The notes under the pieces were generated by a model. It ran no database searches. It was not told the origin of the DNA and was given only the letters and a program-made list of their open reading frames with translations. The translations under genes and the position numbers were made by a program. Below are positions 3,188-42,833 of a stretch of DNA of 51,553 nt, one piece after another. Within the stretch, counting starts at the first letter, position 1. Each line of letters begins with the position of its first letter. Source of the DNA: an uncultured bacterium (GTDB taxonomy: Bacteria; Patescibacteriota; Minisyncoccia; Phycocordibacterales; GWA1-40-21); assembly GCA_963804975.1 (NCBI GenBank), contig CAWDSG010000002.1, forward strand, positions 1 through 51,553, written 5' to 3'.

Positions 3188-3261
3188 TCCTCTCATCGTT
3201 CAATGGATAGGACAAACCCTTGCGAAGGGTTAGATCGAGGTTCGATTCCTCGTGGGAGGAC
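3188..3261 (+). tRNA. tRNA-Arg(GCG)
   Basis: Acceptor TCCTCTC/GGGAGGA, anticodon stem AACCC/GGGTT with loop TTGCGAA, T-arm CGAGGTTCGATTCCTCG. No encoded CCA. Confidence 0.85.
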
Positions 3262-3297
3262 AATTATAAAAAATAAAATAACCCTTTCAGGGTTATT

Positions 3298-3570
3298 TTA
3301 TTTTTTTGCTTTCGCTTTATTCAAAAATTTTGTAATTTTTGATTTGTACCTGGCAGCGGTATTCTTTTTCAAAAATTTTGTCTTTACCGCTTTGTCTATT
3401 GCCTTGTAAACTTCCGGCAGCAATATTTGCGCCTCTTTTATTTTATTTTCCTTTATGAGTTTTTTTATGCTTTTCAGAGCGGAATCTATCGTATTTTTTC
3501 TGCGGATATTGAAAATCTGCTTCCTTTCGGCAACTCTTAATGCTTTTTTTGCTGATGATGTTATAGGCAT
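3298..3570 (-). CDS. rpsT: 30S ribosomal protein S20
   Basis: 90-aa basic protein beginning MPITSSAKKALRVAERK, typical of S20. Confidence 0.9.
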   Translation of the reverse strand: MPITSSAKKALRVAERKQIFNIRRKNTIDSALKSIKKLIKENKIKEAQILLPEVYKAIDKAVKTKFLKKNTAARYKSKITKFLNKAKAKK

Positions 3571-3648: not shown

Positions 3649-4230
3649 ATGATAGCAAAAATTGAAGGCATAGTTTGGGATACCAATAATAAATTTCTCG
3701 TGGTCGGTGTTGGCCTGCCCGGCCAGGGCGGAGTGGGGTTTAAAATTTACACAACCACAGAAACAAAAGAAGTTGCGATAAAAGGCACGAAAATTTCCCT
3801 CTTCACTCACTTGGCTGTGCGGGAAGATGCGCTTGACCTTTATGGATTTCTTTCGGAAGAAGAGCTTAATTTTTTTGAACTTTTGATTTCCATTTCCGGC
3901 ATCGGCCCAAAAACAGCTTTAAATGTTTTAAATGTCAGCTCCGTTTCTCTTCTCAAAAAAGCCATTTCTACCGCCGACACATCCCACCTGATTAAAGTTT
4001 CAGGCATCGGCAAGAAAATCGCGGAAAAAATCGTGCTTGAGCTCAAAGATAAAATATTCACGCAAAAAGAAACCGACATGAATTTGAAAGATGAGATTGA
4101 CGCGATGGAAGCTCTGCAGAGCTTGGGCTATTCGCAAAGAGAAGTCCGTGAAGCTCTGAAAAAAATTGACCAAAAATTTGTTAAAACGCAGGATAAAATA
4201 AAAGAAGCGTTGAAAGTTTTGGGGAAATAA
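3649..4230 (+). CDS. ruvA: Holliday junction DNA helicase subunit RuvA
   Basis: 193 aa. N-terminal MIAKIEG.., GGVGF motif, HhH motifs (ISGIGPKTA, VSGIGKKIAEKI), C-terminal domain III (ALQSLGY). Contains a 5-codon LPGQG insertion. Confidence 0.9.
   Translation: MIAKIEGIVWDTNNKFLVVGVGLPGQGGVGFKIYTTTETKEVAIKGTKISLFTHLAVREDALDLYGFLSEEELNFFELLISISGIGPKTALNVLNVSSVSLLKKAISTADTSHLIKVSGIGKKIAEKIVLELKDKIFTQKETDMNLKDEIDAMEALQSLGYSQREVREALKKIDQKFVKTQDKIKEALKVLGK
3712..3730 (+). repeat. short form of the GC-rich palindromic element (CCTG-CCCGGC-CAGG) in-frame in ruvA
   Basis: ggC CTG CCC GGC CAG GGC encodes G-LPGQG and interrupts VVGV-GGVGF. The codon phase (xxC CTG CCx) is the same as in the full 21-bp copies. 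Confidence 0.6.
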
Positions 4231-12356: not shown

Positions 12357-12929
12357 ATGAATTTAATCCCAACAGTCATAGAAAAATCACAGTTCGGCGA
12401 AAGGGCCTTTGATATTTACTCACGGCTCTTGAAAGAAAGGATAATTTTTCTGGGCGGAGAAATAGACGACGATACCGCAAATATTGTCATTGCGGAGCTT
12501 TTATTTTTGCAATCCGAAGATCCCAAAAAAGATATTATGCTTTACATAAATTCTCCCGGCGGTTCGGCTACGGCAACTTTGGCAATGATTGACACTATGA
12601 ACAATATAAAATGCGATGTATCAACCGTGTGCATAGGACTAGCGGCATCCGGTGCGGCATGGCTTCTTTCTGCGGGAGCAAAAGGAAAAAGATTCGCTTT
12701 GCCGAATTCGGAAGTAATGATTCATCAGCCGCTCGGCGGAGCCCAAGGGCAAGTTTCCGATATAGAAATAAGAACAAAAAATCTTTTGAAATTGCGCGAT
12801 ACTTTGGCTAAAATAATGGCAAAAAACACCGGCCAGCCGCTTTCAAAAATAGAAAAAGATATTGATCGGGATTTCTTCATGGATGCGGAAGAAGCCAAGA
12901 AATACGGGATTGTGGATAAGGTTTTGTAG
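12357..12929 (+). CDS. clpP: ATP-dependent Clp protease proteolytic subunit
   Basis: Conserved ClpP sequence ([34 protein letters not shown]). Confidence 0.93.
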
Positions 12930-18197: not shown

Positions 18198-18493
18198 CAT
18201 TGCAAACAATTGAAAATTACCCTTATTTTGGGTGATTTTCTTTTGCAATGCGCGAGCCGGAGCGCGACGGCGCGAGGCGGGGTCGCGGAATTTTTCAGCA
18301 GAAAAATATCTGTGACTGCAAAAATTAAAAACTAATCAAAAAATTGAGTTATTTTTTGTTTTTGCATAAAAATTCTAAAAAATCAATCAAAGACATCAAA
18401 ATATTTTTAAAGACATAATAAGAACATATTTTACAAAAATTGTACTATTTAATTTATTTTTAGCTCTTAAAATAAGGGGTTCCCACGTGAAAC

Positions 18494-18502
18494 TGTGGAT
18501 AA
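18494..18502 (-). promoter_or_regulatory. perfect DnaA box (TTATCCACA on the - strand)
   Basis: TGTGGATAA on the + strand, directly abutting a parS half-site. A 2-mismatch box (TGTGAATAT) follows 4 nt later. Confidence 0.6.
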
Positions 18503-18665
18503 CTCTGTGAATATGTTAATTAAAGACAGGTCTGATAGATAAGAGAAAAAATGTATTTTTTACGTCTTTTATTAAAATAGTGGCTAATAATAAGAATATT
18601 TTATATAGGGCGTCTTTGAAATTAAGATTGTCCTATAAATAAATGTTTCTTAGTAACATTTTATA

Positions 18666-18681
18666 TGTTTCACGTGAAATG
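18666..18681. promoter_or_regulatory. parS-like site (14/16 match to TGTTTCACGTGAAACA)
   Basis: The sequence is tgtttcacgtgaaatg. Confidence 0.6.
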
Positions 18682-18752
18682 TCGTCAAAAAATGAAAATT
18701 TTTATCAAAATTTAACATGAAAATTATGATATACTGCTTTCAGGATTAATTT

Positions 18753-19157: not shown

Positions 19158-19509
19158 GTGTTTCGCGTGCCTGTCCGGCCAAGAAAACATATCGTCTAAA
19201 TCTATATTTTTCAATAAAAAAACCGCCCTAAACCACTGAGCGTAGTAAGGACGGCGAAAGAAAGAATTTCGCCAAGTCCCGTTTTTCAATCTTAGCGTTT
19301 TAAAAATAAAATCTTAAAGCGGACGAAAAAGGAGCTTAACCAAATTTGACTTTCAATTTCGAAGATAGCTGATCTTCTGGAAAGAACTCCATTGTGAAGC
19401 ATTAAGGAGAACTAAATAATTTGAGTTGCTATATTATTTTGTCTAAATACTTCAAATGCTAAATCCAATATAATTATATCTTGTATAAAGGACATGTAAA
19501 GGACATAAC

Positions 19510-19518
19510 TGTGGATAA
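19510..19518 (-). promoter_or_regulatory. perfect DnaA box
   Basis: TGTGGATAA on the + strand, in the 455-bp convergent spacer between yraN and ftsH, flanked by AAAGGACAT repeats. Confidence 0.6.
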
Positions 19519-19612
19519 CTTGACACGGTCGTTTAATTCTAAAGGACATCAATAATACGGCTAATATTAACGATATTTTTATATTTATATATTATTGACA
19601 AAATTTTTTGAA

Positions 19613-27844: not shown

Positions 27845-28813
27845 CTATTTCTTATTATGAAACTTTTGGTGGACATCGCGGAGGTGTTTGTCGGTAACAT
27901 GGGTGTAAATTTGGGTTGTGGCGATATTTGCATGGCCGAGCATGGCTTGAACGCTTCTTATATCGGCGCCGTTTGAAAGCAGGTCGGTGGCAAAACAGTG
28001 GCGGATGACATGGGGAGTGACTTTTTTGGAAATCCCGGCGATTGCCGCGTATTTTTTGACGATTCTTTCGATTGAACGGCGAGTCAGTCCTTCATCAGAA
28101 CTTTTGTTTCCCGAGGAGAGACCTTTTTTAGGATTCAAGGTATCACCTCGGGAAATTTCATCACTAATTTTAACAAAAAGCGCATCGGACATATCTTTTC
28201 GGAGCGCCAAATATTCTTTTACCGCCGTTTTTGCTTCGGGTGAGAGAAAAACAACGCGCACTTTTCCTCCTTTTCCGCGAATTGAGAATTCATCCTGCCT
28301 GATATCCAAATCGTTCGTAAGGGAACAAAGTTCGGAAACGCGAAGGCCGGTGGAAAACAAAAGTTCCAAAATAGCATGTCCTCTGGCCCTTTTTTCAGGA
28401 TTTTCCTCGGAATCGGGAGCTTTCAGTAGCCGCTGCAATTCTTCAGGCGAGATGACATCTATGGCCCTTTCGCCGACTTTTGCCAGCTCTATCTGGTCGG
28501 CTTGAAGGGAAGTGATACCTCGCTTGGTCAAAAATTTTAAAAAAGTACGAAGAGCTATAAGATAATAATTCTGTGTTTTCTTTTTCATCGTCTCTCCGGT
28601 GGCGCGATTGTTCCCGGCCACTTGTCGATTGAGCCACATGCGAAAATCACGGACTTTTTCGTTTGTTATGTCTTTCGGGTCGTCAGCTTTTGTTTGTTGC
28701 AAAAAAACGGTCAGATAATGGTCATAATTTTCCACCGTGCGGAGTGCGCGGCCTTTTTCAATTTCTATGTACTCAAGGAATTGTTGTTTGAGTTCTTGCA
28801 GTTTCACACCCAT
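27845..28813 (-). CDS. tyrosine recombinase, XerC/XerD-like
   Basis: N-terminal SAM-like domain and catalytic residues in RVSEL, HVIRHCFATDLL and LGHANIATTQIYTHV. Confidence 0.85.
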   Translation of the reverse strand: MGVKLQELKQQFLEYIEIEKGRALRTVENYDHYLTVFLQQTKADDPKDITNEKVRDFRMWLNRQVAGNNRATGETMKKKTQNYYLIALRTFLKFLTKRGITSLQADQIELAKVGERAIDVISPEELQRLLKAPDSEENPEKRARGHAILELLFSTGLRVSELCSLTNDLDIRQDEFSIRGKGGKVRVVFLSPEAKTAVKEYLALRKDMSDALFVKISDEISRGDTLNPKKGLSSGNKSSDEGLTRRSIERIVKKYAAIAGISKKVTPHVIRHCFATDLLSNGADIRSVQAMLGHANIATTQIYTHVTDKHLRDVHQKFHNKK

Positions 28814-30553: not shown

Positions 30554-30741
30554 TTTAAACTCCTTTGAATTTATACTTGTACTTCTGTTTAAAGAGTACA
30601 AGGTTTGTTGTTTTTGTCAATGATTTGAAAAATTCGGATTTTATGTTAATTTTAACTTGTTATCAATTAATAAATTGGCCTTTGGATAAGCAGCTCAAAA
30701 CTTTATAGTTCTGATCTGAAATCTGAAGGTCAGCTAAAAAT

Positions 30742-32856: not shown

Positions 32857-32880
32857 AAAATAATTAAAAAGCCGATTTAT

Positions 32881-32908
32881 TTTCTGCTGACTTGAGAAAG
32901 TCAGAATC
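32881..32908 (+). repeat. polar intergenic repeat, copy a (divergent)
   Basis: tttctgctgacttgagaaagtcagaatc shares TCTGCT...GAGAAAGTCAGAA with the family. Confidence 0.6.
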
Positions 32909-32914
32909 AGTTTT

Positions 32915-32943
32915 TTGTCGTTTAAGAAGAAAGATGGTATAAT
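32915..32943 (+). promoter_or_regulatory. sigma70-like promoter (TTGTCG-17-TGgTATAAT)
   Basis: Extended -10 box 6 nt upstream of the ATG region of the 32950 ORF. Confidence 0.5.
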
Positions 32944-32949
32944 AAAAAT

Positions 32950-33267
32950 ATGAAATTTGATGAATCAGGTCAACCAAATATTGAAAGAGAAGCTAAAATA
33001 ATTCCTATTATTGATATAATAGCAAAAGCAGTAGGAAAAATTAATCCGGATGAACCGTATGTACCGGGTGTTCCATATAAATTAGCTGAAAAAATTCTTG
33101 ATTCAAAAGGAGAAACTATCGAAGATAAAGTCAATGACATGTTTAAAACTTCTTTTAAAGATACACCGGAGTTGAGAAAAGCACATCCTGAAATATACGA
33201 AGGATTAAATAAAATAAAAGCACTTATCATTGAAGATCTTCAGAAAAAATATCCGAACGGTTTTTAA
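32950..33267 (+). CDS. hypothetical protein
   Basis: 105-aa ORF, the sole gene in the unit between repeat copies a and b. Confidence 0.5.
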   Translation: MKFDESGQPNIEREAKIIPIIDIIAKAVGKINPDEPYVPGVPYKLAEKILDSKGETIEDKVNDMFKTSFKDTPELRKAHPEIYEGLNKIKALIIEDLQKKYPNGF

Positions 33268-33300
33268 TTTCTGCTCTATTTAGATAGAGGAAGTCAGAAC
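33268..33300 (+). repeat. polar intergenic repeat, copy b
   Basis: The sequence is tttctgctctatttagatagaggaagtcagaac. Confidence 0.75.
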
Positions 33301-33315
33301 ATGTTTATTTATAAA

Positions 33316-33822
33316 TTAAACAAGATCGTTTAATATTGATTTAGCTATTTCTTTAGGTTTGATTTTGCTCGTATCAAAAATTTTTTCTCCTTTAATTTTG
33401 TAAGGATTGCACCAATAACTTTTAATTGCATTTTTTGTTATTTTATATTTAACATCCGGTATAATTCTTCTTCTATTTCTCTCTAAACAAACTTTCAAAG
33501 GCGGGTAAAGTAAGTATGAATATAATTTATACTTGTTCTTTTTAGCCAGTTTTTTATAGGCATCATATTGATATGCTTTATTGGAATGTATATCAGCGAT
33601 GATTACTCTGCCGGTTTTTTTCATAATTTCATCGGCTAAAAAGATTGCTGTTTTGAATGCCATGCGATCTCGCCATTCGGAAGCTTTTGCATGATCAATG
33701 GATCTTTTGAACGAATCCATATCTACAATACTTGCTTTATGAATATTCTTTTTCAACAGTTCAACGATTGTTGATTTGCCTCCGCAAATTGGACCGCGTA
33801 TGAGGATAATAACTTTTTTCAT
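33316..33822 (-). CDS. P-loop NTPase / small-molecule-kinase-like protein
   Basis: Walker A GPICGGKST at the N-terminus. At 168 aa it has a size and layout like the AAA_33 / zeta-toxin-like kinase fold. Confidence 0.65.
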   Translation of the reverse strand: MKKVIILIRGPICGGKSTIVELLKKNIHKASIVDMDSFKRSIDHAKASEWRDRMAFKTAIFLADEIMKKTGRVIIADIHSNKAYQYDAYKKLAKKNKYKLYSYLLYPPLKVCLERNRRRIIPDVKYKITKNAIKSYWCNPYKIKGEKIFDTSKIKPKEIAKSILNDLV

Positions 33823-33843
33823 GATGAAAATTATATCATGAAA

Positions 33844-33875
33844 TTTCTGCTCTACTGGCTGGAGAAAGTTAAAAC
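33844..33875 (+). repeat. polar intergenic repeat, copy c
   Basis: The sequence is tttctgctctactggctggagaaagttaaaac. Confidence 0.75.
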
Positions 33876-33879
33876 CTGG

Positions 33880-34473
33880 TTATGCTCCCCAAATAGATAA
33901 ATTTGGATATTTTTTTCTTAGGGCAGTTAATTCAGTCTCAGATAGCATAGGAAGTAAAACACTACCTTTAACAGATTTAGGAAGTTTAAGACCCTTAGCT
34001 GATTCCAAATCTTGAAGAATAAGATTTCCATTGATGACTTCAGGAAATTTTACACCATCTGCTGATATAATATTTGAAAGATCAAGATTACCGCCAATAG
34101 ATTCCGGAAATTTAAGACCCTTTGCTGATTCCAACGTTTTAAGATATAGGTGTCCCCCAATAAATTCTGGAAGTTTCAAACCCTTAGCTGATTCAATATT
34201 ATCAAGATTAACCTCTCCACCAACATGTTTAGGAAGCTCTAAAACTCCAGTTTCGGGAAGATATCTAAGATCAAGATTACCGCCAACAAATTCTGGAAAT
34301 TTCAAACCTTTAGTTGATGTAAGATTTCGTAGGTCAAGATTACCACTAATAGACTTCGGAAGTTTTAAACCTTCGGCTGATGTGAGAGTAGAATAATCAA
34401 GGTCGCCTTGAAATTCATATTGTTGTTCCTGTTTATTTTCTTCAAAAATTTCTTCTGGATTAATCTTTTTCAT
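33880..34473 (-). CDS. repeat protein with seven 21-aa LRR-like repeats
   Basis: The unit (S/T)AKGLK(L/F)Pxx(I/V)GGNLDLxxLx is repeated 7 times, and a 63-bp periodicity is visible in the DNA at about 33942-34386. Confidence 0.65.
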   Translation of the reverse strand: MKKINPEEIFEENKQEQQYEFQGDLDYSTLTSAEGLKLPKSISGNLDLRNLTSTKGLKFPEFVGGNLDLRYLPETGVLELPKHVGGEVNLDNIESAKGLKLPEFIGGHLYLKTLESAKGLKFPESIGGNLDLSNIISADGVKFPEVINGNLILQDLESAKGLKLPKSVKGSVLLPMLSETELTALRKKYPNLSIWGA

Positions 34474-34502
34474 ATCAAAAGTATATCATAATTATAGTTA
34501 GA

Positions 34503-34536
34503 ATATCTGCTCCATCGGCTAGAGGAAATTAGAATC
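34503..34536 (+). repeat. polar intergenic repeat, copy d
   Basis: The sequence is atatctgctccatcggctagaggaaattagaatc. Confidence 0.75.
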
Positions 34537-34589
34537 ATATTCGGGACAAAACCGGCATTTTTTAGTATAATGGGAAAAATTTCATTATT

Positions 34590-35642
34590 ATGGACGAAGA
34601 TATTGATGTAGAAAAAAATAAAGACGATCTTGATGAAAAACTGCGGGAAGCTGTCAGCGGCGAATTGAGTTCCTATGTAAATCCGCAGCCAACTTCAAAT
34701 TCCGCGGTAAAAACTCCGGTAAAACCGATTATCAGGACTTACAAAAGCGATATGGAGGAAACGATCGAAGCAGGGCATCTTTCTTCCATCAATATGGCTA
34801 TCAGTGAGAACAAAAAAATGATGGGCCGGATGAAGCAGGGAATATCCGAGATAAAAAAATCACCTGTCCGGTCAGGAAAATTAAATAAAAACATAATTAT
34901 TATAAGTTTGGTGCTTGTCGCCGGCGGAGCGGCGGCGATTTTCGTACCATACTTTTTGGTGCAAAAACAAAACGCACCTTCAACAGTGGCTTCAAGCACT
35001 ATCACCGCATTAACCCAATCCATAATGACGACCGATATTGAGGAAAAAATAAACATCAAAGACATAAACCTAAACGGAATAGACACGACTTTGAAACAAA
35101 GGGTTGACCAGTCAGCGACAAATCTCGGACAAATCAAAGATTTTGTGCTGACAAAAGGAAATGGAACAAATGAAGCTCCGATCTTGGCAAGTGAATTCCT
35201 GACTATGATCAAAGCTGATGTTCCGCCGGCAATATCACGGAATCTTCTGCCGCAATATATGTTCGGAATGCACAATTACAACGGAAATCAGGAATTTTTG
35301 ATATTGAAAGTCAGCTCATACGATACGACATTTTCCGGAATGCTTTTGTGGGAAACAGACCTGTGGCAGAACTTTAAAAACCTTTTCGGCCTTTCCGATA
35401 CTGCCGGCTCCGAAACACCTATAGCAAGCACTTCAGGCCAAAATTCATTTGGTATAACAGTGAAAAGATTCCAGGATGCCGAATTCGCCAACAAGGATTG
35501 CAGGGTGGTAAAAGACGATTCAGGAAATATAGTTTTCCTTTATTCAATCATAAATCCAAGCACTGTCGTCATAACTACCAGCTCGGATACATTGAAAGAA
35601 ATAATTTCAAGAACGAGCAGAATAAATACCGTAACTCAGTAA
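34590..35642 (+). CDS. hypothetical single-pass membrane protein
   Basis: 350 aa with a central TM segment (IIIISLVLVAGGAAAIFVPYFLV). No family recognised. Confidence 0.6.
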   Translation: MDEDIDVEKNKDDLDEKLREAVSGELSSYVNPQPTSNSAVKTPVKPIIRTYKSDMEETIEAGHLSSINMAISENKKMMGRMKQGISEIKKSPVRSGKLNKNIIIISLVLVAGGAAAIFVPYFLVQKQNAPSTVASSTITALTQSIMTTDIEEKINIKDINLNGIDTTLKQRVDQSATNLGQIKDFVLTKGNGTNEAPILASEFLTMIKADVPPAISRNLLPQYMFGMHNYNGNQEFLILKVSSYDTTFSGMLLWETDLWQNFKNLFGLSDTAGSETPIASTSGQNSFGITVKRFQDAEFANKDCRVVKDDSGNIVFLYSIINPSTVVITTSSDTLKEIISRTSRINTVTQ

Positions 35643-35684
35643 TCGCTTGGTTTTGGAATAAAATTTTGATACAATTCAATCACT

Positions 35685-36044
35685 ATGATAGATACAAATA
35701 AATTCAAAAAGAAATTGGAGAAAGAATTGAAGCTTGTGGAAGCCGAGCTCGCCGATATTGGCATGGAAGACAAATCAAACCCGGTAGACGGCTGGAAAGC
35801 TGTTGAAACGGAGATTGATTCGGACCATGCCGATGACAATGACGTAGCAGACAATCTGGAAAGCTTTGACGAAAATAGGTCAGTAGTGGATAATCTGAAA
35901 ATTCAATACGAAAACATCAAGCTTGCTTTGGAAAAAATCAAGAAAGGCATTTATGGCAAATGCGAAGTCGGCGGTGAAGATATTCCTGAAGCCCGCCTTG
36001 AAGCAAATCCAAGCGCAAAAACTTGTATAAAACATGCTCGCTAG
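35685..36044 (+). CDS. DksA/TraR-family protein with degenerate zinc finger
   Basis: Coiled-coil N-terminus and the C-terminal sequence GIYGKCEVGGEDIPEARLEANPSAKTCIKH. Only 2 of the usual 4 cysteines are present. Confidence 0.6.
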   Translation: MIDTNKFKKKLEKELKLVEAELADIGMEDKSNPVDGWKAVETEIDSDHADDNDVADNLESFDENRSVVDNLKIQYENIKLALEKIKKGIYGKCEVGGEDIPEARLEANPSAKTCIKHAR

Positions 36045-36187
36045 TCAAAAGTTGAAAGTTTTGCTAGAATAGAATTAGCATACCAGCCAAGCTTCTTCGT
36101 CGTCCTGAATCCGGGACATAAATCGAAAGCTCAAATCGGCTGGTTTTTTTATTTGAATTAATTTCAAATAATGTATAATACTCTTAA

Positions 36188-37762
36188 GTGAATTTCGCCA
36201 AAACATATTCCGCACAGACCGTAGGTCTCGGCGCAAAAATAGTTGACGTCGAGATTGATCTCTCAAAAGGTCTGAATTCTTTTACCATTGTCGGCCTGCC
36301 GGACAAAGGCGTTGAGGAATCAAAAGACAGGGTTTCCGCGTCAATCAAGAATTCCGGCTTCACGTCTCCGAAAAGCCAGAATCAAAAAGTGGTGGTATCT
36401 CTCGCTCCCGCCGATTTAAAAAAGGAAGGTCCGGTTTTTGATGTCGCCATATCGCTTGCATATATGCTGGCCCATGAAGACATAGATTTTGATTCGGAGA
36501 AAAAACTTTTTCTTGGCGAGCTTTCTCTTGACGGGAATGTCAGAAGCGTAAACGGCGTTCTCCCGATTGTCGCAGAAGCGAAAGCGCGCGGATTTCTTGA
36601 AATATTCGTGCCAAAAGACAATGCGAGGGAAGCGGCGCTAGTTTCCGGCATCAAAATATATCCTGTTGATAATCTGAAAGAAATTATTGATCATTTGAAT
36701 GACCCCAGTGAAGTAAAAAATTCAAAACTTCACGGGGCAGGAAAAAATGTTAGTAAAAAAATCTCAACACAGCCGCAGACGAAAATTGTTGTTGAAGATG
36801 ATGAGATATTCGCCATAGATTTCAGCGAGATCAAAGGCCAAGAAACCGCAAAACGCGGCTTGGAAATCGCCGCCGCAGGCGGGCATAACATCGCGATGTA
36901 TGGGCCTCCGGGCACCGGCAAGACTATGCTTGCGAAAGCTTTCAGCCATATTTTGCCGCCGCTTTTATATGAAGAAATTTTGGAGATTACTTCCATACAT
37001 TCAGTCGCAGGAATATTGAAAAAAGATATTATTACGAAATCGCCGGTCAGAAATCCGCATCATACCGCATCATACGTATCTATTGTCGGCGGAGGAGTGA
37101 TACCGAAGCCGGGAGAAGTGACGCTTGCACATCACGGCGTTCTTTTCCTTGATGAATTTCCGGAATTTGAAAGAAAAGTAATTGAGACATTGCGCGAACC
37201 GCTTGAGGAAGGTGAGATAAGCATTTCGCGCGCCAAAGGCACGCATACTTTTCCGGCAAATTTCATTCTTATTGCCGCAATGAATCCGTGCCCATGCGGA
37301 AATGCCGGTTCAAAGACAAAAGATTGCATCTGCAAGCCGCATGATATCGCCAGATATCAGAGAAAAATTTCCGGACCGATTATTGATAGGATAGATATGT
37401 GGGTTGAGGTTTCGCAGATTGATTATGAGAAACTTTCGGACAGAAAAACCTCTGTTCCGGAAAGCAAACTCATAAAAGAGCGGGTTATGAGCGCGCGAAA
37501 AATCCAAAAAGAGCGTTTTGACGAAGCAAAAAGAAAAATCAAAACAAACAGCGAGATGGAAGCCAAAGATATCGGCAAACTAATAAATATAGACGATAAA
37601 GTGAAAGAAATTTTGAATATGTCTGCTAAAAAACTGAATTTGTCAGCCCGCGCGTATCATCGGGTCATCAAACTCGGCCGAACCATCGCCGATTTGGAAG
37701 GAAGCAAAGAAATAAATTCCTCGCACATCCTTGAAGCATTACAATATCGTCCAAAAAGATAA
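36188..37762 (+). CDS. YifB/ComM-family Mg-chelatase-like AAA+ ATPase
   Basis: Lon-like N-terminal domain, Walker A GPPGTGKT, Walker B VLFLDEF and a C-terminal ChlI-like region. GTG start. Confidence 0.9.
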   Translation: MNFAKTYSAQTVGLGAKIVDVEIDLSKGLNSFTIVGLPDKGVEESKDRVSASIKNSGFTSPKSQNQKVVVSLAPADLKKEGPVFDVAISLAYMLAHEDIDFDSEKKLFLGELSLDGNVRSVNGVLPIVAEAKARGFLEIFVPKDNAREAALVSGIKIYPVDNLKEIIDHLNDPSEVKNSKLHGAGKNVSKKISTQPQTKIVVEDDEIFAIDFSEIKGQETAKRGLEIAAAGGHNIAMYGPPGTGKTMLAKAFSHILPPLLYEEILEITSIHSVAGILKKDIITKSPVRNPHHTASYVSIVGGGVIPKPGEVTLAHHGVLFLDEFPEFERKVIETLREPLEEGEISISRAKGTHTFPANFILIAAMNPCPCGNAGSKTKDCICKPHDIARYQRKISGPIIDRIDMWVEVSQIDYEKLSDRKTSVPESKLIKERVMSARKIQKERFDEAKRKIKTNSEMEAKDIGKLINIDDKVKEILNMSAKKLNLSARAYHRVIKLGRTIADLEGSKEINSSHILEALQYRPKR

Positions 37763-37766
37763 AAAT

Positions 37767-37800
37767 TATCTTGCTCCACTAGTATAGAGAAAGTTAGAAC
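37767..37800 (+). repeat. polar intergenic repeat, copy e
   Basis: The sequence is tatcttgctccactagtatagagaaagttagaac, followed by ttgtttttg as in copy g. Confidence 0.75.
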
Positions 37801-37824
37801 TTGTTTTTGAATATTTTTGAATAA

Positions 37825-37856
37825 TAAAAAAATCCCCACTAATCGTCAGTGGGGAT
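37825..37856 (-). terminator. intrinsic terminator on the - strand
   Basis: ATCCCCACT-N7-AGTGGGGAT with a T7 run on the - strand only. Confidence 0.75.
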
Positions 37857-37987
37857 TGAGAGTATACACTCACGCCGTAGGTAGCTGTGCATACTTACGT
37901 TGTTTGGGATTAGCTAATTCCCAAAACACGGATCTAAAAGGTTCCAAACCTGCCTAAGCTCTTAGCGCAGAGGAAAGTCCCTTTTCT
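37833..37987 (-). ncRNA. candidate ~155-nt small RNA (unknown family)
   Basis: On the - strand there is a promoter TTGACA (38023-38018), a 17-nt spacer and ATTATT (38000-37995). Then come about 150 nt with hairpins (TTGGGA..TCCCAA) and no ORF, ending at the terminator at 37825-37856. The element lies between repeat copies e and f. Confidence 0.3.
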
Positions 37988-38082
37988 TGTTCACAATAAT
38001 AGCAAAGATTTAAAAAATGTCAAGCTTTTTTTATATTTTCCTTTTTATATATCTAAAATAGACCTAAGAATAAGGCTAATTT

Positions 38083-38114
38083 AATTTGCTCCATTAAATA
38101 GAAGAAATTGGAAC
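38083..38114 (+). repeat. polar intergenic repeat, copy f
   Basis: The sequence is aatttgctccattaaatagaagaaattggaac. Confidence 0.65.
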
Positions 38115-38127
38115 TTTTATCAAATCT

Positions 38128-39195
38128 CTAATACTCGCTTGGATCTTGCATGAAATTATACGCTCCACGGACTTCAAAATGCAAATGCGGGCCTGTGGAA
38201 TTTCCTGTATTTCCCGTAAGTCCTATGACTTGGCCTTGAAAAACAAATTCTCCTGCAGATACATAGTTGACGCTCAAGTGACCATAGACCGTTTCAGTGC
38301 CGTTTGCATGCGATATGACGATATATCTGCCGTATCCGCCGTTCCAACCCGATGCTCTTGAAATAAGAACCTCTCCTGAAGCCGCCGCAAATACCGAGGT
38401 TCCGACAGGGGTGCCGAGGTCAATCGCATTCCATCCATGCAGACCTTGTGTTTTTACTCCACCGACAATAGGGCGAATATAATATCCTTGATAATCCGGT
38501 CCGCTTCCGCCAAGATACGGCTCATTTCCGCTTCTTCTGCCGGATAATGAACTTGGATTGATATATGCTCCTTCGCCGTCAGGAATAATTATTGAATCTC
38601 CCACTGTGAGAGGAGAGCTCTGGTCAATTCCGTTGAACTGGGCGATTTCTCCGGCATCAGCTTTATATTTTTTGGCAATGGATTGCAGCGTGTCCCCATT
38701 TGCAATCTTATGAAGCGTCCCCGAAACAGGCAATATTATAAGAGTGTCTCCCGGCTGTACGCTTGTGGCGGTTACATTGTTCGCCCAAATAATGGTATTG
38801 ACCGAAACACCAAACATTTTTGCTATGCCGGAAAGTGTATCTCCTTTCTGCACTTTATATTTGCTGATTTGCCCTGTATTGGCCGAATCGCTGACATCGG
38901 CAAGAGTGCCGGAAGGTCCGCTCTCGGATACCAAAGCATCATTATTTGCAACAATAATATCTCCTCCTCCAACCGCGGCTGAAGCATTAAAATTGGTTGA
39001 ATTTTGGAGAAGCGGAACGTTTTGCGAATTTAGGTTGTCCGAGAGAGAAATATCGGAAGAAACGGAAAGATTCCCCAGTATTATACTTGAGAGAGCGGAA
39101 AACAAACTGGCATTTGCGGTAGCTGGTATGGCAGAGATAATGGAAAAGATAAACAAAAAGATAACAAGCCAGTTTGAATACATGGCTAAAAACAT
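38128..39195 (-). CDS. LysM-domain M23-family peptidoglycan endopeptidase
   Basis: Signal/anchor sequence, two LysM repeats (YKVQKGDTLSGIAK.., HKIANGDTLQSIAKKY..) and the M23 motifs HGWNAIDL and GNSTGPHLHFEV. Confidence 0.87.
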   Translation of the reverse strand: MFLAMYSNWLVIFLFIFSIISAIPATANASLFSALSSIILGNLSVSSDISLSDNLNSQNVPLLQNSTNFNASAAVGGGDIIVANNDALVSESGPSGTLADVSDSANTGQISKYKVQKGDTLSGIAKMFGVSVNTIIWANNVTATSVQPGDTLIILPVSGTLHKIANGDTLQSIAKKYKADAGEIAQFNGIDQSSPLTVGDSIIIPDGEGAYINPSSLSGRRSGNEPYLGGSGPDYQGYYIRPIVGGVKTQGLHGWNAIDLGTPVGTSVFAAASGEVLISRASGWNGGYGRYIVISHANGTETVYGHLSVNYVSAGEFVFQGQVIGLTGNTGNSTGPHLHFEVRGAYNFMQDPSEY

Positions 39196-39314
39196 TGATT
39201 TTATGGAACGACCCTTAGATTTCGCCTTATTTTTAGGGTCGAATATTGAGTTTTCGTCTTTTATAAGCCAATTTTATTAAGGGAATTCGGTACTTTCTGA
39301 ATTTTTACGGCCTA

Positions 39315-39332
39315 CCTGCCGGTAAAGGCAGG
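39315..39332. repeat. stem-only variant of the GC-rich palindrome (CCTGCC-N6-GGCAGG) in the 5' leader of the M23 gene
   Basis: The context is cctaCCTGCCggtaaaGGCAGGctc. Confidence 0.4.
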
Positions 39333-39392
39333 CTCTCCTTAGCCGTATTTCAGCAATTTTGCTTCTGTTTCGGTAGGGTATAATTATACTAC

Positions 39393-39420
39393 CTGAGGTT
39401 TCTCGGTCAACCAAGTTATC
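39393..39420 (-). promoter_or_regulatory. sigma70-like promoter of the M23 peptidase gene (TTGACC-16-TATAAT on the - strand)
   Basis: -35 box at 39420-39415 and -10 box at 39398-39393, leaving a leader of about 190 nt. Confidence 0.5.
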
Positions 39421-39425
39421 CACAC

Positions 39426-39434
39426 TAAAAATCC
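39426..39434 (+). promoter_or_regulatory. perfect DnaA box TTATCCACA, 5 nt upstream of the -35 box of the M23 promoter
   Basis: Exact 9-mer match. Confidence 0.5.
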
Positions 39435-39479
39435 CCGGATAGTAAATATCCGAGGATTTGTTTTTGCTTCTAAAAACAA

Positions 39480-39719
39480 TTAATTAGAGGTTCCGTCATC
39501 ATTATCATTTCTAAATATTGGGTCATCGCGATAACTTATATTGGAACTGGGATCATGTATTGTTTCCGAAAATGCTTTGCCACCAATGTATCCGAAACCT
39601 CCGCCAAAAACCACCATGAAAATGGTGATGAATAATGGCTGTTGATTTATGATTCCGAAAAAACAAAGAACTACGGCGCCAGCAAGACCACCAATTGTTC
39701 CTGCAATTTTATTTTTCAT
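39480..39719 (-). CDS. small glycine-zipper membrane protein
   Basis: 79 aa with RBS GGAGGA and two TM segments rich in G-xxx-G. A terminator lies downstream. Confidence 0.55.
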   Translation of the reverse strand: MKNKIAGTIGGLAGAVVLCFFGIINQQPLFITIFMVVFGGGFGYIGGKAFSETIHDPSSNISYRDDPIFRNDNDDGTSN

Positions 39720-39852
39720 CTTAATCCTCCAAGGTTCAAAATTTTGACTTCAAAGTTCACAACGCAAGTTTGTTCCGTTTTAAACTCTACATTTTTATAA
39801 CTTTTTGTCAAGATTTTAAGCCCTAAATCTGATTTTATGTTATATTTACCAA

Positions 39853-41805
39853 ATGGATTACCTAAAAGGTCTAAATGAAAAGCAAAAAGAAGCTGTTTTA
39901 CAGAAAGACGGACCGGTTTTGGTGATTGCCGGAGCTGGGGCGGGAAAGACAAAGACTATTGCCCACAGAATCTTGCACTTGATAAAAGAAGGGATTGCAC
40001 CGGAGAACATTTTGGCTATAACTTTCACCAACAAAGCCGCCAAAGAAATGCAGGAAAGGGTGGAAAAAATAATTTTCGAGGATAAAAAACTGAATTTTCC
40101 GGCACATTTCCACAGCCGGCCGTTTGTCAGCACATTTCACTCGCTCGGCGTCCATATTATAAAAGAAAATGCCCGGCTCATCGGCCTCACTCGTCATTTT
40201 AATATTTCGGACAGAAGCGATTCGTCAAAAATGATCCGAGATTGCCTGAAAAGCTTGGATATTGATCCGAAACAATTTGAGCCGGGGAAAATTCTGACAA
40301 TAATTTCAAAACAAAAAGGAAACTTGATTGAAATGGAAGATTATTCGGTAGAAAAACAAAAAGGTTTCACTCTTTCCGCAGTCGTGGCTATGGTCTGGCC
40401 GCTTTACGAGCAAAAATTAGCTGAGGAAAAATCCCTTGATTTTGACGATCTTCTCCTGAAATCTTATTTGATTTTGAAAAAGCACAAAGATATTTTGGAA
40501 AAATACCAGAATATTTGGAAATATGTTTTAGTGGACGAATATCAGGACACGAATAAAGTCCAATATGAAACGGTAAAACTTCTCGCCGAAAAAAACAGGA
40601 ATATTTTTGTGGTAGGGGATGTTGACCAGAACATTTACAGCTGGCGCGGAGCGGATATAGAAAATTTGCTGAATTTTGAAACCGATTATCCGGAAGCGAA
40701 AGTTATTTTGCTTGAAGAAAATTATCGCTCAACGCAGACAATACTCGCCGTCGCAAACGATGTCATCAAAAAAAATAAATTAAGGAAAGAAAAAAATCTT
40801 TTCACAAAAAATGATGTCGGCGAGAAAGTTTCGTTTCTGCGGACGACAAATGAAACCGAGGAAGCAAGATTTGTGGCGCAAAAATCAAAAGAATTAATCG
40901 CAAACGGAATCAATTCGAGAGAAATCGCTGTGCTTTACCGGGCAAATTTCCAGTCCCGCGCAATTGAAGAAGCGTTTATGATTGAGGATGTGCCTTATCA
41001 AGTTCTTGGAACGAAATTTTTTGAAAGAAAGGAGGTGAAAGATATTCTCTCATATCTTAAAGCAAGTTTGAATCCGGAAAGTTTGAGCGACATAAAAAGA
41101 ATAATAAACGTGCCGGCGCGCGGAGTGGGAAAAGTGACTGTCTTGAAAATTTTTTCCGATAAAAGCAGAAAATTGGACGGATTGCCGGCGGCGATGAAGG
41201 AAAAAGTGAATAATTTTTATAAACTTTTGGAAAAAATTAAAAAAGAAATCGGCGAGAAAAAACCGTCTGAAGTTATAAAATTCATAATAAAAGAAACCGG
41301 GCTTGAGCTTGAATTGCAAAAAGGAAACGACGAGGACAAAGAAAGATTGGAAAATATGCGCGAGCTTGCGACTTTCGCCGTAAAATATGACGCCCTGCCA
41401 AAACCGGAAGGAATTGAAAAGCTTTTGGAAGAATCGGCGCTTGCCACGGACCAGGATTCGCTTGAAAAAAACGAAAAAGCAGTGAAACTTATGACTGTTC
41501 ACGCATCAAAAGGGCTTGAATTTGATTATGTTTTTATCACAGGGCTTGAACAAAATCTTTTTCCGCACCAGAGCATCGGGACGGAACAAAAAACACCGCA
41601 AGATTTGGAGGAGGAAAGACGACTTTTTTATGTAGCTTTGACACGCGCAAGAAAAAAGTTATTCTTGACCTATTCCGAAATGCGGACGATTTTTGGTTCG
41701 CAGCAGATAAATCTGCCTTCGGAATTTTTCGCAGATTTTGACAATGATTTGCTTGAGGGAGAAAAATTTGAATCCAGCGAAAAAATAATTTATTTGGATT
41801 GGTAA
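39853..41805 (+). CDS. UvrD/PcrA/Rep-family ATP-dependent DNA helicase
   Basis: Motif I AGAGAGKT, motif II VDEYQDTN, plus ENYRST, VLYRAN and TVHASKGLEF..VALTRA. Confidence 0.9.
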   Translation: MDYLKGLNEKQKEAVLQKDGPVLVIAGAGAGKTKTIAHRILHLIKEGIAPENILAITFTNKAAKEMQERVEKIIFEDKKLNFPAHFHSRPFVSTFHSLGVHIIKENARLIGLTRHFNISDRSDSSKMIRDCLKSLDIDPKQFEPGKILTIISKQKGNLIEMEDYSVEKQKGFTLSAVVAMVWPLYEQKLAEEKSLDFDDLLLKSYLILKKHKDILEKYQNIWKYVLVDEYQDTNKVQYETVKLLAEKNRNIFVVGDVDQNIYSWRGADIENLLNFETDYPEAKVILLEENYRSTQTILAVANDVIKKNKLRKEKNLFTKNDVGEKVSFLRTTNETEEARFVAQKSKELIANGINSREIAVLYRANFQSRAIEEAFMIEDVPYQVLGTKFFERKEVKDILSYLKASLNPESLSDIKRIINVPARGVGKVTVLKIFSDKSRKLDGLPAAMKEKVNNFYKLLEKIKKEIGEKKPSEVIKFIIKETGLELELQKGNDEDKERLENMRELATFAVKYDALPKPEGIEKLLEESALATDQDSLEKNEKAVKLMTVHASKGLEFDYVFITGLEQNLFPHQSIGTEQKTPQDLEEERRLFYVALTRARKKLFLTYSEMRTIFGSQQINLPSEFFADFDNDLLEGEKFESSEKIIYLDW

Positions 41806-41810
41806 AGCAA

Positions 41811-41843
41811 GTGAACTATTTCATTTATAGAAAAAGTTAAAAC
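41811..41843 (+). repeat. polar intergenic repeat, copy g (5' half degenerate)
   Basis: gtgaactatttcatttatagaaaaagttaaaac followed by ttgtttttg. The 3' half is nearly identical to copy e. Confidence 0.55.
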
Positions 41844-42062
41844 TTGTTTTTGTTGCAAACCAATTAGTAGTTGACAAATCTTTATTTGGCGATATCGTTG
41901 TAAATAGTATCGTCCTTTTATAATATATAATATAAAAAGATTAAAAATGAGATGAGCGTTTTGGATGTCTATGAAAGATTTCTAAAACGCTCGTCTCATG
42001 TAGTTAGTGGGGTGGCCGTCTGCCAGAACGTGTTTCTGGTAAATTAAAAAAGGAGGTGTGTC

Positions 42063-42833
42063 ATGGAAATCATGGCGCGTCCCAGCAATAAAGAAGAAAT
42101 TTTCGGCCAAGACAATGGACTTATTCATGAAGCCGTTATCACTGGTCGAAAAGTTGGTGCAGGAAGAAAATTCTGGTCAAGCCTTGCCCATAACCAAACT
42201 TTGTTTGAAGAGGTTGTGGACCTTGTTAATCGAGGTGGTCTTTCCGGACCAACTACGTACTTAACAAAAGCAGAAAAAATTATGGGACCAAACCTTTTTG
42301 GGCCAGGGGAGGCTAAAAAATATTTCGGTATTACCCTTTTGGATGAGCAGATTTCTTCTCTTGCAGAAATTCCTTATCCCGAAACAGTCTTGAGAGAATT
42401 GAAAGGCACTCATATTCTAGTTGCAACTTTTCCGCTTTCAATTCTCGATATTCGAGAGAAATTTCCGAAGATATTTGCCACGTCGCCACAAGAATATGCT
42501 TGGTATGCGAAACAGTCATTTGCTATCGACAAAGGAAAAGCAGAATGGTTTTTAGTAAGAAAAAAACCATTATATGCAAATGCTTTAACCGAGAATATGG
42601 AGGTGCCGACGGCTCGTGTTATGACCTATTGTATAATTGGTCATCTGCTTGCTACAGGCAAAAGATTGGTTAAGAATCATGTTCGTGTTTCACCCAGCGG
42701 CACTTCCGAAGGAATCATTGCTCTCTCTGTTGGTTTTACAGGGCCACTTGGTTTTTCAATCATGGGTATAAGCAAGTGCGCTATGTATGAACATATTCCA
42801 CTTGCTTCTGTTTATAAACAAACTAAATCTTGA
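42063..42833 (+). CDS. hypothetical protein
   Basis: 256-aa ORF with a strong RBS (AAGGAGG) and a clean terminator. No family recognised. Confidence 0.6.
   Translation: MEIMARPSNKEEIFGQDNGLIHEAVITGRKVGAGRKFWSSLAHNQTLFEEVVDLVNRGGLSGPTTYLTKAEKIMGPNLFGPGEAKKYFGITLLDEQISSLAEIPYPETVLRELKGTHILVATFPLSILDIREKFPKIFATSPQEYAWYAKQSFAIDKGKAEWFLVRKKPLYANALTENMEVPTARVMTYCIIGHLLATGKRLVKNHVRVSPSGTSEGIIALSVGFTGPLGFSIMGISKCAMYEHIPLASVYKQTKS

Follow-up and report, generated by a model that had tools for sequence, protein, structure and literature searches.

An oriented intergenic repeat at the borders of lineage-specific DNA in a Paceibacteria genome

A stretch of 51,553 bp (38.8% GC) from the genome of a member of Paceibacteria (candidate phyla radiation, CPR, or Patescibacteria), hereafter the window, carries a short intergenic motif, M, in seven copies that all face the same way and that lie at the edges of DNA missing from syntenic relatives. 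We tentatively read M, with somewhat less than even confidence, as an end or junction repeat of an insertion process that would be private to this lineage and strand-specific, some of the copies having been reused later. Four borders that coincide with motif ends, a layout of n+1 direct copies for n cargo units, cargo of foreign look, and the uniform polarity are the reasons for reading M as the end or junction of inserted DNA; that M caused or guided the insertions, and each step of a mechanism, is what we infer from the copies, their polarity, the insertions relative to the relatives, the borders, and the composition. The best homologues of the ComM protein encoded in the window are annotated as Candidatus Paceibacterota.

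An earlier note on this DNA had listed seven copies of the motif, every one intergenic and on the + strand, and no further copy on either strand of the window, and both statements are borne out by two scoring schemes. The first is R1, a sequence-only Infernal model of 47 positions built from the seven copies, and the second is a 15-nt weight matrix of the 3' half of the motif. The seven copies, between 32.9 and 41.9 kb, are c1 (32881-32918; 31.1 bits with R1), behind pnp; c2 (33268-33310; 36.7 bits), directly after the stop codon of the orphan gene orf105 and between it and a convergent gene for a P-loop kinase-like protein; c3 (33844-33886; 37.7 bits), between the start of the kinase gene and the stop of a gene for a protein with 21-amino-acid (aa) repeats; c4 (34503-34545; 34.1 bits), between the divergent repeat-protein gene and orf350; c5 (37767-37811; 38.5 bits), 4 nt after the comM stop; c6 (38083-38123; 31.0 bits), about 10 nt before the stop of an M23 peptidase gene; and c7 (41811-41853; 27.9 bits), just after the stop of pcrA, at the left edge of orf256. 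With R1, the copies score 27.9-38.5 bits (E from 1e-7 to 5e-11), and the next-best matches in the window reach 11.2 and 11.1 bits (E about 0.02), the former being a reverse-strand self-match of c6. With the weight matrix, the copies score 17.0-21.8 bits, the best other site on both strands scoring 16.4, and a degenerate pattern matches four of the seven copies versus none in 100 shuffles. The spacings from copy to copy are 387, 576, 659, 3264, 316, and 3728 bp. The arrangement is not an assembly artefact, since contigs of a separate Logan assembly of run ERR10755942, possibly from the same sample, are 99.97-100% identical to the window over all seven copies.

As to the DNA between the copies, a comparison of synteny, one of the checks proposed in the earlier note, was made with the loci of ComM homologues of 80-87% identity in five relatives (L068/L069, L070, L071, L072, and L221), which share the core order xer-rpsO-NYN-pnp-orf350-dksA-comM-M23-x-pcrA-x-ksgA. 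These relatives lack both M and the cargo between the repeats. The best R1 score in their 100 kb is 9.7 bits (E = 0.13), and homologues are missing from all five for orf105, the kinase, the repeat protein, a candidate small RNA (sRNA) between c5 and c6, orf79, orf256, orf131, orf76, or orf365. In the window, the gene order from 25.9 to 46.4 kb runs exonuclease, orf365, xer (-), orf76, rpsO, NYN nuclease, orf131 (-), and pnp, followed by orf105, the P-loop kinase-like gene (-), the 21-aa-repeat gene (-), orf350, a DksA/TraR-like gene, and comM/yifB, and then by a unit without an open reading frame (ORF), a LysM-M23 peptidase gene (-), orf79 (-), pcrA, orf256, ksgA, and envelope genes.

The relatives also reveal how the spacers looked without the motif. 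In their genomes, pnp is followed by one long terminator hairpin and by the TAGTATAAT promoter of orf350-381. Alignment with them places the left arm of this ancestral hairpin (AAAAAGCCGATTT) at 32866-32878 of the + strand of the window and its right arm (GGGACAAAACCGGCATTTTTT), followed by the ancestral orf350 promoter, at 34543-34574 of the same strand, right arm and promoter being kept as GGGACAAAACCGGCATTTTTTAGTATAAT (34543-34571). Between the arms lies block 1 (32881-34535), composed of M-orf105-M-kinase-M-repeat protein-M, which opens with the first base of c1, its left border, and closes with the last bases of c4, its right border in the empty-site alignment. With 32880 joined to 34536, the flanks make up a spacer whose whole length aligns with the one terminator-promoter spacer that L068, L071, and L072 have here, and block 1 is therefore a clean insertion of 1,655 bp into the top of the hairpin that ancestrally terminated pnp. 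Block 2 (37767-38117) consists of c5, the sRNA unit, and c6, with c5 as its left border and c6, by comparison with L221, as its right border; it occupies the comM/M23 gap up to a T-rich remnant before the M23 stop. The same gap is one terminator in L221 and L068, and that terminator is gone from the window. All four borders of the two blocks thus lie within about 5 nt of an M core, and both blocks have n+1 direct copies of M for n cargo units, which is the topology that recombination or transposition with direct end repeats leaves behind. The comM and pcrA intervals, counted as cassette units in the earlier note, turn out to be conserved ancestral core-gene blocks in the relatives, and the 9 kb once taken for a single cassette array are instead three separate insertions into a conserved core-gene block.

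The contents of the small units are as first described, namely an orphan ORF, a P-loop kinase-like ORF, a 21-aa-repeat protein, and an ORF-less unit with a structured RNA. The first of these, orf105 (32950-33267, + strand), has its own promoter, TTGTCG-17-(TG)GTATAAT (32915-32943), a GC content at third codon positions (GC3) of 0.15, and no match in Pfam, PHROG, or NCBIfam. The kinase-like gene (33316-33822, - strand; AAA_33 or polynucleotide-kinase-like) has the -10 element TGATATAAT, a GC3 of 0.27, and 11 homologues, all of at most 62% identity, in other Patescibacteria. The 21-aa-repeat gene (33880-34473, - strand), with a 63-bp period, a TATAAT -10 element, and a GC3 of 0.16, has distant relatives of at most about 52% identity. 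The sRNA cassette (37826-38023, - strand) encodes a candidate structured RNA of about 170 nt, between a TTGACA-16-TATTAT promoter (38023-37996) and a terminator with 12 bp (37857-37831); the predicted fold has a z score of -3.7, and the RNA has no Rfam match, nor has the whole region one at the gathering threshold, a chance match to NRON (E = 0.5) being all that 37700-38200 yields. To the right of c7, the lineage-specific orf256 (42063-42833, + strand; GC3 0.30) ends at a strong canonical terminator and has no M on its right side. The GC3 values of the block-1 genes (0.15, 0.27, and 0.16) and of orf79 and orf256 (0.29-0.30) are below those of the core neighbours (0.40-0.43), and judged by this composition the cargo looks foreign or very young. 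Low GC3 (0.15-0.30; 32950-34473, 39480-39719, and 42063-42833) is a simple marker of acquired or young genes in this genome.

The placement of M tells against a tie to transcription. M occurs in all four kinds of gaps, 3'/5' tandem (c1 and c7), convergent (c2 and c5), - strand tandem (c3 and c6), and divergent (c4), and is thus independent of the direction of transcription, as the earlier note had observed. Intergenic DNA makes up 14% of the window, so that seven of seven intergenic placements would arise by uniform chance with a probability of about 1e-6, and for the agreement in orientation the two-sided p is 0.016. Uniform orientation would also suit a replication- or segregation-polar signal, that is, an oriented chromosomal site of a Ter-, KOPS- (FtsK-orienting polar sequence), or centromere-like kind near the origin. 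At about 26-27 kb the sign of the GC skew flips and the genes diverge in orientation, which suggests that the window contains a replication origin; the region with M therefore probably belongs to a single replichore, close to an origin, as such a signal would, and, given a rightward fork, the + strand would be the lagging-strand template there. Against this, relatives with the same core genes at the same position have no such site, and all the copies lie within 9 kb and within inserted DNA, so that we regard a polar signal as extremely improbable. As a conserved chromosomal signal M is ruled out, the relatives having the same core genes and no M, and M bears no recognised likeness to parS. Of the DNA-level roles entertained at the outset, the link with cassette gain is favoured, as M bounds DNA that the relatives lack, but a replication or segregation signal finds no support beyond the uniform orientation.

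The motif itself, 33-45 bp in length, has the consensus TTTCTGCTCYA - N5-6 - TAGAGRAAGT - YAGAAC - NTGTTTWT. Three parts can be told apart, a left 10-mer (TTCTGCTCYA), a variable centre of 5-6 nt, and a right part, TAGAGRAAGT-YAGAAC-(NTGTTTTT). The left 10-mer recurs in inverted form as the first right 10-mer (TAGAGCAGAA versus TAGAGGAAGT), and the second right 10-mer, YAGAACNTGT, is a direct repeat of the first (TAGAGRAAGT), one helical turn further. The centre has 6 nt in c2 and c5 and 5 nt in c3, c4, and c6, and is collapsed in c1. A tail, TTGTTTTTG, was said to follow the motif often; it does follow M, but in exact form in c5 and c7 only.

This anatomy bears on a different explanation, in which M is a passenger that came from a donor replicon or spread with duplicated gene fronts. 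It would be an operator or an element upstream of a promoter, its inverted pair and third, direct 10-mer forming a protein-binding site, and it would regulate the cassette genes and have no part in insertion. Two direct 10-mers one helical turn apart, as in the right half, would fit such a site. So would the reverse complement of M at the same place, about -57 to -25, before the -10 elements of the kinase (c3) and repeat-protein (c4) genes; on the - strand, c3 spans that very region of the extended -10 kinase promoter. Local alignment further shows that the front of the kinase gene (first codons MKK, 5' untranslated region, and -10 element; 33804-33845, - strand), contiguous with c3, is homologous to that of the repeat-protein gene (34457-34493, - strand), which adjoins c4. 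The homology of c3 and c4 runs about 40 nt further left, through -10, 5' untranslated region, and first codons, with a score of 35 versus a null maximum of 30 in 300 shuffles, which points to at least one duplication having copied motif plus gene front as one piece. In L071, moreover, duplicated native promoter DNA flanks inserted genes. Yet a -10 element at the matching distance is found in just two of the seven copies, and for four copies the neighbour is the 3' end of a + strand core gene, into which a leftward promoter would send antisense RNA only. Conservation does not extend to the left halves of c1 and c7, and domain searches detected no DNA-binding domain in the cassette proteins. Finally, M stands exactly at the outer borders of both blocks, which would not be expected of a site inside randomly cut donor DNA. 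We consider a passenger site unlikely.

The possibility that M acts in RNA, insulating neighbouring units as a weak stop to transcription in both directions or as an RNA processing site, turns on how the copies fold. At least one gene ends at each of six of the seven copies, and the ancestral terminators of pnp and comM were lost or split in the insertions. Two copies do resemble terminators. In c1, behind pnp, the left half is remodelled so that CTGACTT pairs with AAGTCAG (-9.4 kcal/mol, then T6), and in c7, behind pcrA, the consensus left half is replaced by the complement of its own right half (-9.3 kcal/mol, then T5; z = -1.8 on the + strand and -3.05 on the - strand). A T5 tail is also present in c5. 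But there is next to no structure on the + strand of c3, c5, and c6 (folds of -2 to -4 kcal/mol, with z above 0), c4 has a gene start on either side, and a symmetric stop gives no reason for seven copies in one orientation. Strong canonical GC-rich terminators are used elsewhere in the same region, and M is found in 6 of 10 gaps with a 3' end and in 1 of 2 divergent gaps, hence without enrichment. An insulating stop is in our view very unlikely. On the favoured reading of M as a junction repeat, the left halves of c1 and c7, altered to pair with their own right halves before T-runs, suggest that the original function is spent at those two sites.

The 5' hairpin of the first description is present as a dyad at the consensus level, but it is weak and not common to all copies. 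The inner dyad CTCYA/TRGAG pairs in 75% of helix cells, versus 29-50% with a slid partner; covariation in it is lacking, 335-456 of 500 shuffles scoring as well, and a dyad at consensus level without covariation fits a DNA site better than a selected RNA. The - strand folds somewhat better than the + strand (z from -3.05 to +1.1). Selected RNA structure is ruled out by weak, inconsistent folds and by the lack of covariation. An intrinsic terminator family is likewise rejected, since five copies have no G+C-rich stem with a T-run; the terminator scan flags c1 alone, and c7 folds well with its T5. No copy contains a promoter-like hexamer pair (-35 and -10, spaced by 16-18 nt) in a promoter scan, which rules out a sigma-70 promoter (matches beside c1 and c4 belong to downstream genes). 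The two scans together uphold the initial opinion that M is neither a promoter nor a general terminator.

One further alternative is a selfish mini-repeat of about 40 bp, like the repetitive extragenic palindromic (REP) sequences or the miniature inverted-repeat transposable elements (MITEs), copied independently, locally, and strand-specifically into seven neighbouring spacers and unrelated to gene gain. M is indeed short and partly palindromic, lies between genes, and keeps one orientation, traits that REP and IS200-type elements can also show. However, independent later insertions would not strike the exact borders between old and new DNA four times, about 45 other spacers of the window have no copy, and the copies are diverged, not near-identical, with weak hairpins. 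We deem this explanation distinctly unlikely, and M is probably not a REP sequence.

To return to the reading of M as an end or junction repeat of inserted DNA, the events may be pictured as follows. Segments bounded by directly oriented M (M-cargo-M, chainable as M-g-M-g-M-g-M) would have been inserted in one fixed orientation into terminator-containing spacers behind the core genes pnp, comM, and pcrA of the conserved gene block. The cargo would be AT-rich foreign DNA with its own promoters, comprising three small ORFs, one sRNA gene, and probably orf256. Because the empty sites of the relatives have no M, the simplest picture would be a unit with a full M at each end, chains of units sharing the internal copies, and recombination into a pre-existing att site would be less likely. 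The activity would be trans-acting and strand-specific, with its enzyme encoded elsewhere than in the window. One option, by analogy, is a single-strand, hairpin-guided "peel-and-paste" of the IS200/IS605 type, for which a terminator loop would be a plausible single-stranded target; another is a site-specific recombinase that would make direct junction repeats, as in integron, Xer-module, or IS26-type arrays. We make no choice between the two routes, because the window has no enzyme, the hairpins are weak, and there is no target word or duplication. After insertion, the copies would have drifted or been reused. Copies c1 and c7 would have become hairpin-plus-T-run terminators of pnp and pcrA, whose own terminators were split or displaced, and c3 and c4 may have been reused as the -57 to -25 region of two leftward cassette promoters.

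How does M compare with known systems? Integron cassette arrays, and the clusters of attC sites lacking integron integrases (CALINs), come close in several respects. As in the window, with its units of 0.3-0.7 kb, short units with one small accessory gene each lie between direct, imperfectly palindromic sites, and attC, like M, has conserved ends, a variable centre, and strand-specific polarity. The attC sites are 57-141 bp in length and have complementary R''/R' boxes (RYYYAAC/GTTRRRY), extrahelical bases, and strand-specific polarity (PMC5027507), whereas M, at 33-45 bp, lacks the RYYYAAC/GTTRRRY pair; its right side has a partial GTTARAA-like sequence, and its left end, TTTCTGC, has no AAC triplet except in the aberrant c7. 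Integrons mostly carry promoterless cassettes co-oriented behind the promoter Pc, but the cargo between the copies of M faces both directions and has its own promoters, orf105, the kinase gene, the repeat-protein gene, and the sRNA each having -10 or -35 elements of their own. Unlike integron arrays, M forms n+1 full sites where the relatives are motif-free, and no integron integrase is encoded in the window (CALINs are also without one). By size, boxes, and cassette design, attC identity of M is ruled out.

Similar likenesses and differences can be noted for Xer-dependent dif modules, such as the pdif modules of Acinetobacter, and for the arrays of integrative mobile elements exploiting Xer (IMEX), in which accessory modules are also bounded by two-armed sites with a variable centre. 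The pdif sites, about 28 bp long in an 11-6-11 layout, have a conserved inner palindrome, outer parts that vary more, a centre of about 6 bp that also varies, and a conserved XerD arm; the modules are flanked by inversely oriented sites, XerC/D followed by XerD/C (PMC6449649). The orientation of pdif sites alternates, but M is always direct; its centre is 5 or 6 nt, not a fixed 6, and it is origin-proximal. The XerD-arm consensus, with its TTATG core, was not recognised in M. The reverse-complemented right arm (ACTTTCTCTAT) may resemble the XerC arm of Firmicutes dif. The lack of a fixed 11-6-11 layout and the direct orientation rule out dif/pdif identity. A further resemblance to dif modules is a Xer-type tyrosine recombinase (XerD/XerC/XerA-like; 27845-28813, - strand), assigned by profile scores and synteny and encoded 4 kb from M, but this gene is ancestral and present in the M-free relatives. 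It scores 236 bits with the XerD model and 222.5 with XerA_Arch (cut-off 220), versus 135 with the integron-integrase model TIGR02249 (cut-off 265) and 82 with PRK15417 (cut-off 435), and an 87%-identical orthologue is found at the same place in the M-free L068. There is no dif-like or M-like sequence beside xer. A specific link of M to this Xer or to an integron integrase is ruled out, as the gene is a conserved syntenic core gene of M-free relatives, in agreement with the earlier note, which had seen no direct link.

The ends of IS200/IS605 elements, and of their derivatives without genes (palindrome-associated transposable elements, PATEs, and the REP and bacterial interspersed mosaic elements, BIMEs, served by REP-associated tyrosine transposases, RAYTs), are similarly strand-specific and in the same orientation, and a hairpin-loop target would suit them. 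IS200/IS605 elements have no terminal inverted repeats and make no target duplication, their ends being similar secondary structures in the same orientation; their strand-specific orientation is tied to the lagging-strand template, and insertion takes place 3' of a fixed word of four or five nucleotides, which also borders the left end (PMC5027513). M differs in having weak hairpins (5-6 AT-rich pairs with mismatches), no conserved target word of 4-5 nt, and no Y1 transposase in the window, and it is present in seven copies as far as visible, versus tens to hundreds for IS200/IS605-derived repeats. Families of REP or BIME repeats mobilised by RAYTs are marked by many copies across the genome, by a RAYT gene with the same repeat at its flanks, and by a conserved, stable, imperfect palindrome. 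On the test for a common target word, an IS200/IS605 end is ruled out. Another example is IS26, an insertion sequence of 820 bp with its own transposase and 8-bp duplications, in contrast to M, which has about 40 bp and is non-coding. The translocatable-unit arrays of IS26, built by insertion beside an existing copy or by cointegrate formation, have n cargo segments and n+1 direct copies, and the blocks described here resemble them in that n cargo units are separated and bounded by n+1 direct copies. A last parallel is the xer-rpsO gap of L071, which, like the M blocks, has lineage-specific small genes between core genes, as self-contained units of promoter, ORF, and terminator, and direct repeats of intergenic DNA at the joints. 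There, in a contig of GCA_040384425.1, a direct repeat of about 70 nt (3233-3432 and 4028-4198), made of xer-proximal intergenic/promoter DNA, surrounds extra genes for a protein of 132 aa and a helix-turn-helix protein of 75 aa. At its one locus, the L071 repeat duplicates the native promoter next to it, but M is absent from the native DNA of the relatives and is found at three loci. We conclude that M is an oriented junction repeat, private to this lineage and tied to gene gain; its general kind is known, but it is a member of none of the known families tested.

A number of observations weigh against reading M as the mark of an insertion process. If the three blocks are counted as independent events, the agreement in orientation has a p of 0.25. 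Of 21 junctions between 25.9 and 46.4 kb, 16 touch lineage-specific DNA, so that by simple counting the p for seven of seven copies at novel junctions is about 0.10, and the same stretch holds lineage-specific genes without M, namely orf365, orf76, orf131, orf79, and the right side of orf256. The left borders show no conserved target word, the bases left of the copies (TTAT, ATTA, TTAA, GAAA, GAAT, TTAA, and GCAA) being AT-rich without a common word, and no duplication of the target site was found. The copies share 44-77% identity in pairs, and their single-strand folds on the + strand are weak and vary by copy (-2.2 to -9.4 kcal/mol, z from -1.8 to +1.6); with a variable centre and such low identity, most copies could not recombine with one another via a classical tyrosine recombinase. 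The 51.5-kb window encodes no transposase or dedicated recombinase, a Y1 gene included. At the flanks of kinase homologues, M was not found in four loci fetched for two of them, whose contexts are unrelated. The nearest relatives are 13% diverged in ComM, a distance at which timing and intermediate states are not readable. The case of L071 suggests that insertions flanked by copies of native intergenic DNA also arise without M, and general homology-assisted gene addition in these bacteria, M being just one particular joint, is possible.

Searches beyond the relatives yielded no second carrier of M, another point against it. Exact-pattern scans covered 185,579 species genomes (GTDB), JGI metagenomes, and IMG/VR, with a strict pattern that catches four of the seven local copies and would miss diverged families; they returned single chance-level matches per contig in unrelated taxa, and most viral matches represent one conserved coding stretch (LLHEMEKIKI-type) common to related phage contigs. 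Exact-protein look-ups with orf105, rpsO, the DksA-like protein, M23, and KsgA retrieved just the Logan contigs of ERR10755942, 99.97-100% identical to the window, among which no polymorphic or empty-site allele was seen. The M family thus rests on one population. Neither did one read run contain reads over the block joints, at a coverage of about 1x with 151-nt contigs, and blastn gave no match of block 1 to phage records or of block 2 to plasmid records. A literature search turned up nothing on repeats of this sort, or on integrons, in the genomes of Patescibacteria.

The CPR/Patescibacteria have tiny, highly syntenic genomes and nonetheless many lineage-specific orphan genes squeezed between core genes, and inserted DNA edged by one oriented motif at three loci provides a testable handle on this, as well as a candidate recombination substrate of 35-45 bp. 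In its boldest form, the reading favoured here would extend to a previously undescribed cassette-capture system of Paceibacteria, in which an unlinked trans-acting enzyme would use a polar site of some 35-45 bp, built of a pair of inverted 10-mers and a third 10-mer in direct orientation, to bring self-expressing mini-modules, with protein genes as well as sRNA genes, into terminator loops behind core genes, resulting in arrays with n+1 sites; this we think a doubtful extension, with little probability on its side. Such a system would be integron- or dif-module-like, but would lack an integrase platform and promoterless cassettes and have a different type of site. Should it be true and an acting enzyme be found, it would represent a new small cassette system and a possible genetic tool for organisms that have almost none; should M prove regulatory or a decaying passenger, the locus would be an ordinary variable islet.

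Some further features of the window may be mentioned. DnaA boxes are present at 12911, 18494, and 19510 (- strand) and at 39416 (+ strand), two perfect ones lying within the large ORF-free gaps 18336-18752 and 19158-19612; the dnaA gene is absent from the window. A GC-rich palindrome, CCTACCTGCCGGTAAAGGCAGGCT (39311-39334; arms CCTGCC...GGCAGG), is found in the long leader of the LysM-M23 peptidase gene. The comM/M23, M23/pcrA, and pcrA/ksgA spacers contain a different lineage-specific gene in almost every relative (L068, L070, and L071 versus the window), the respective contents being 166 aa; 410, 272, 135, or 79 aa; and NUDIX plus LMWPc, 316 aa, or orf256. From these comparisons, the three spacers are apparent recurrent insertion hot spots in an otherwise rigidly syntenic block. 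One last example of shared intergenic DNA is a promoter-like stretch of 42-46 nt (TTTTTGTCAA...GATTTTATGTTA), common to the upstream regions of pnp (30611-30652) and pcrA (39802-39847), with a local alignment score of 42 versus a null maximum of 30. Each of the two stretches adjoins a divergent lineage-specific orphan (orf131 and orf79, respectively), and the common stretch may be a shared regulatory promoter or another duplicated joint.

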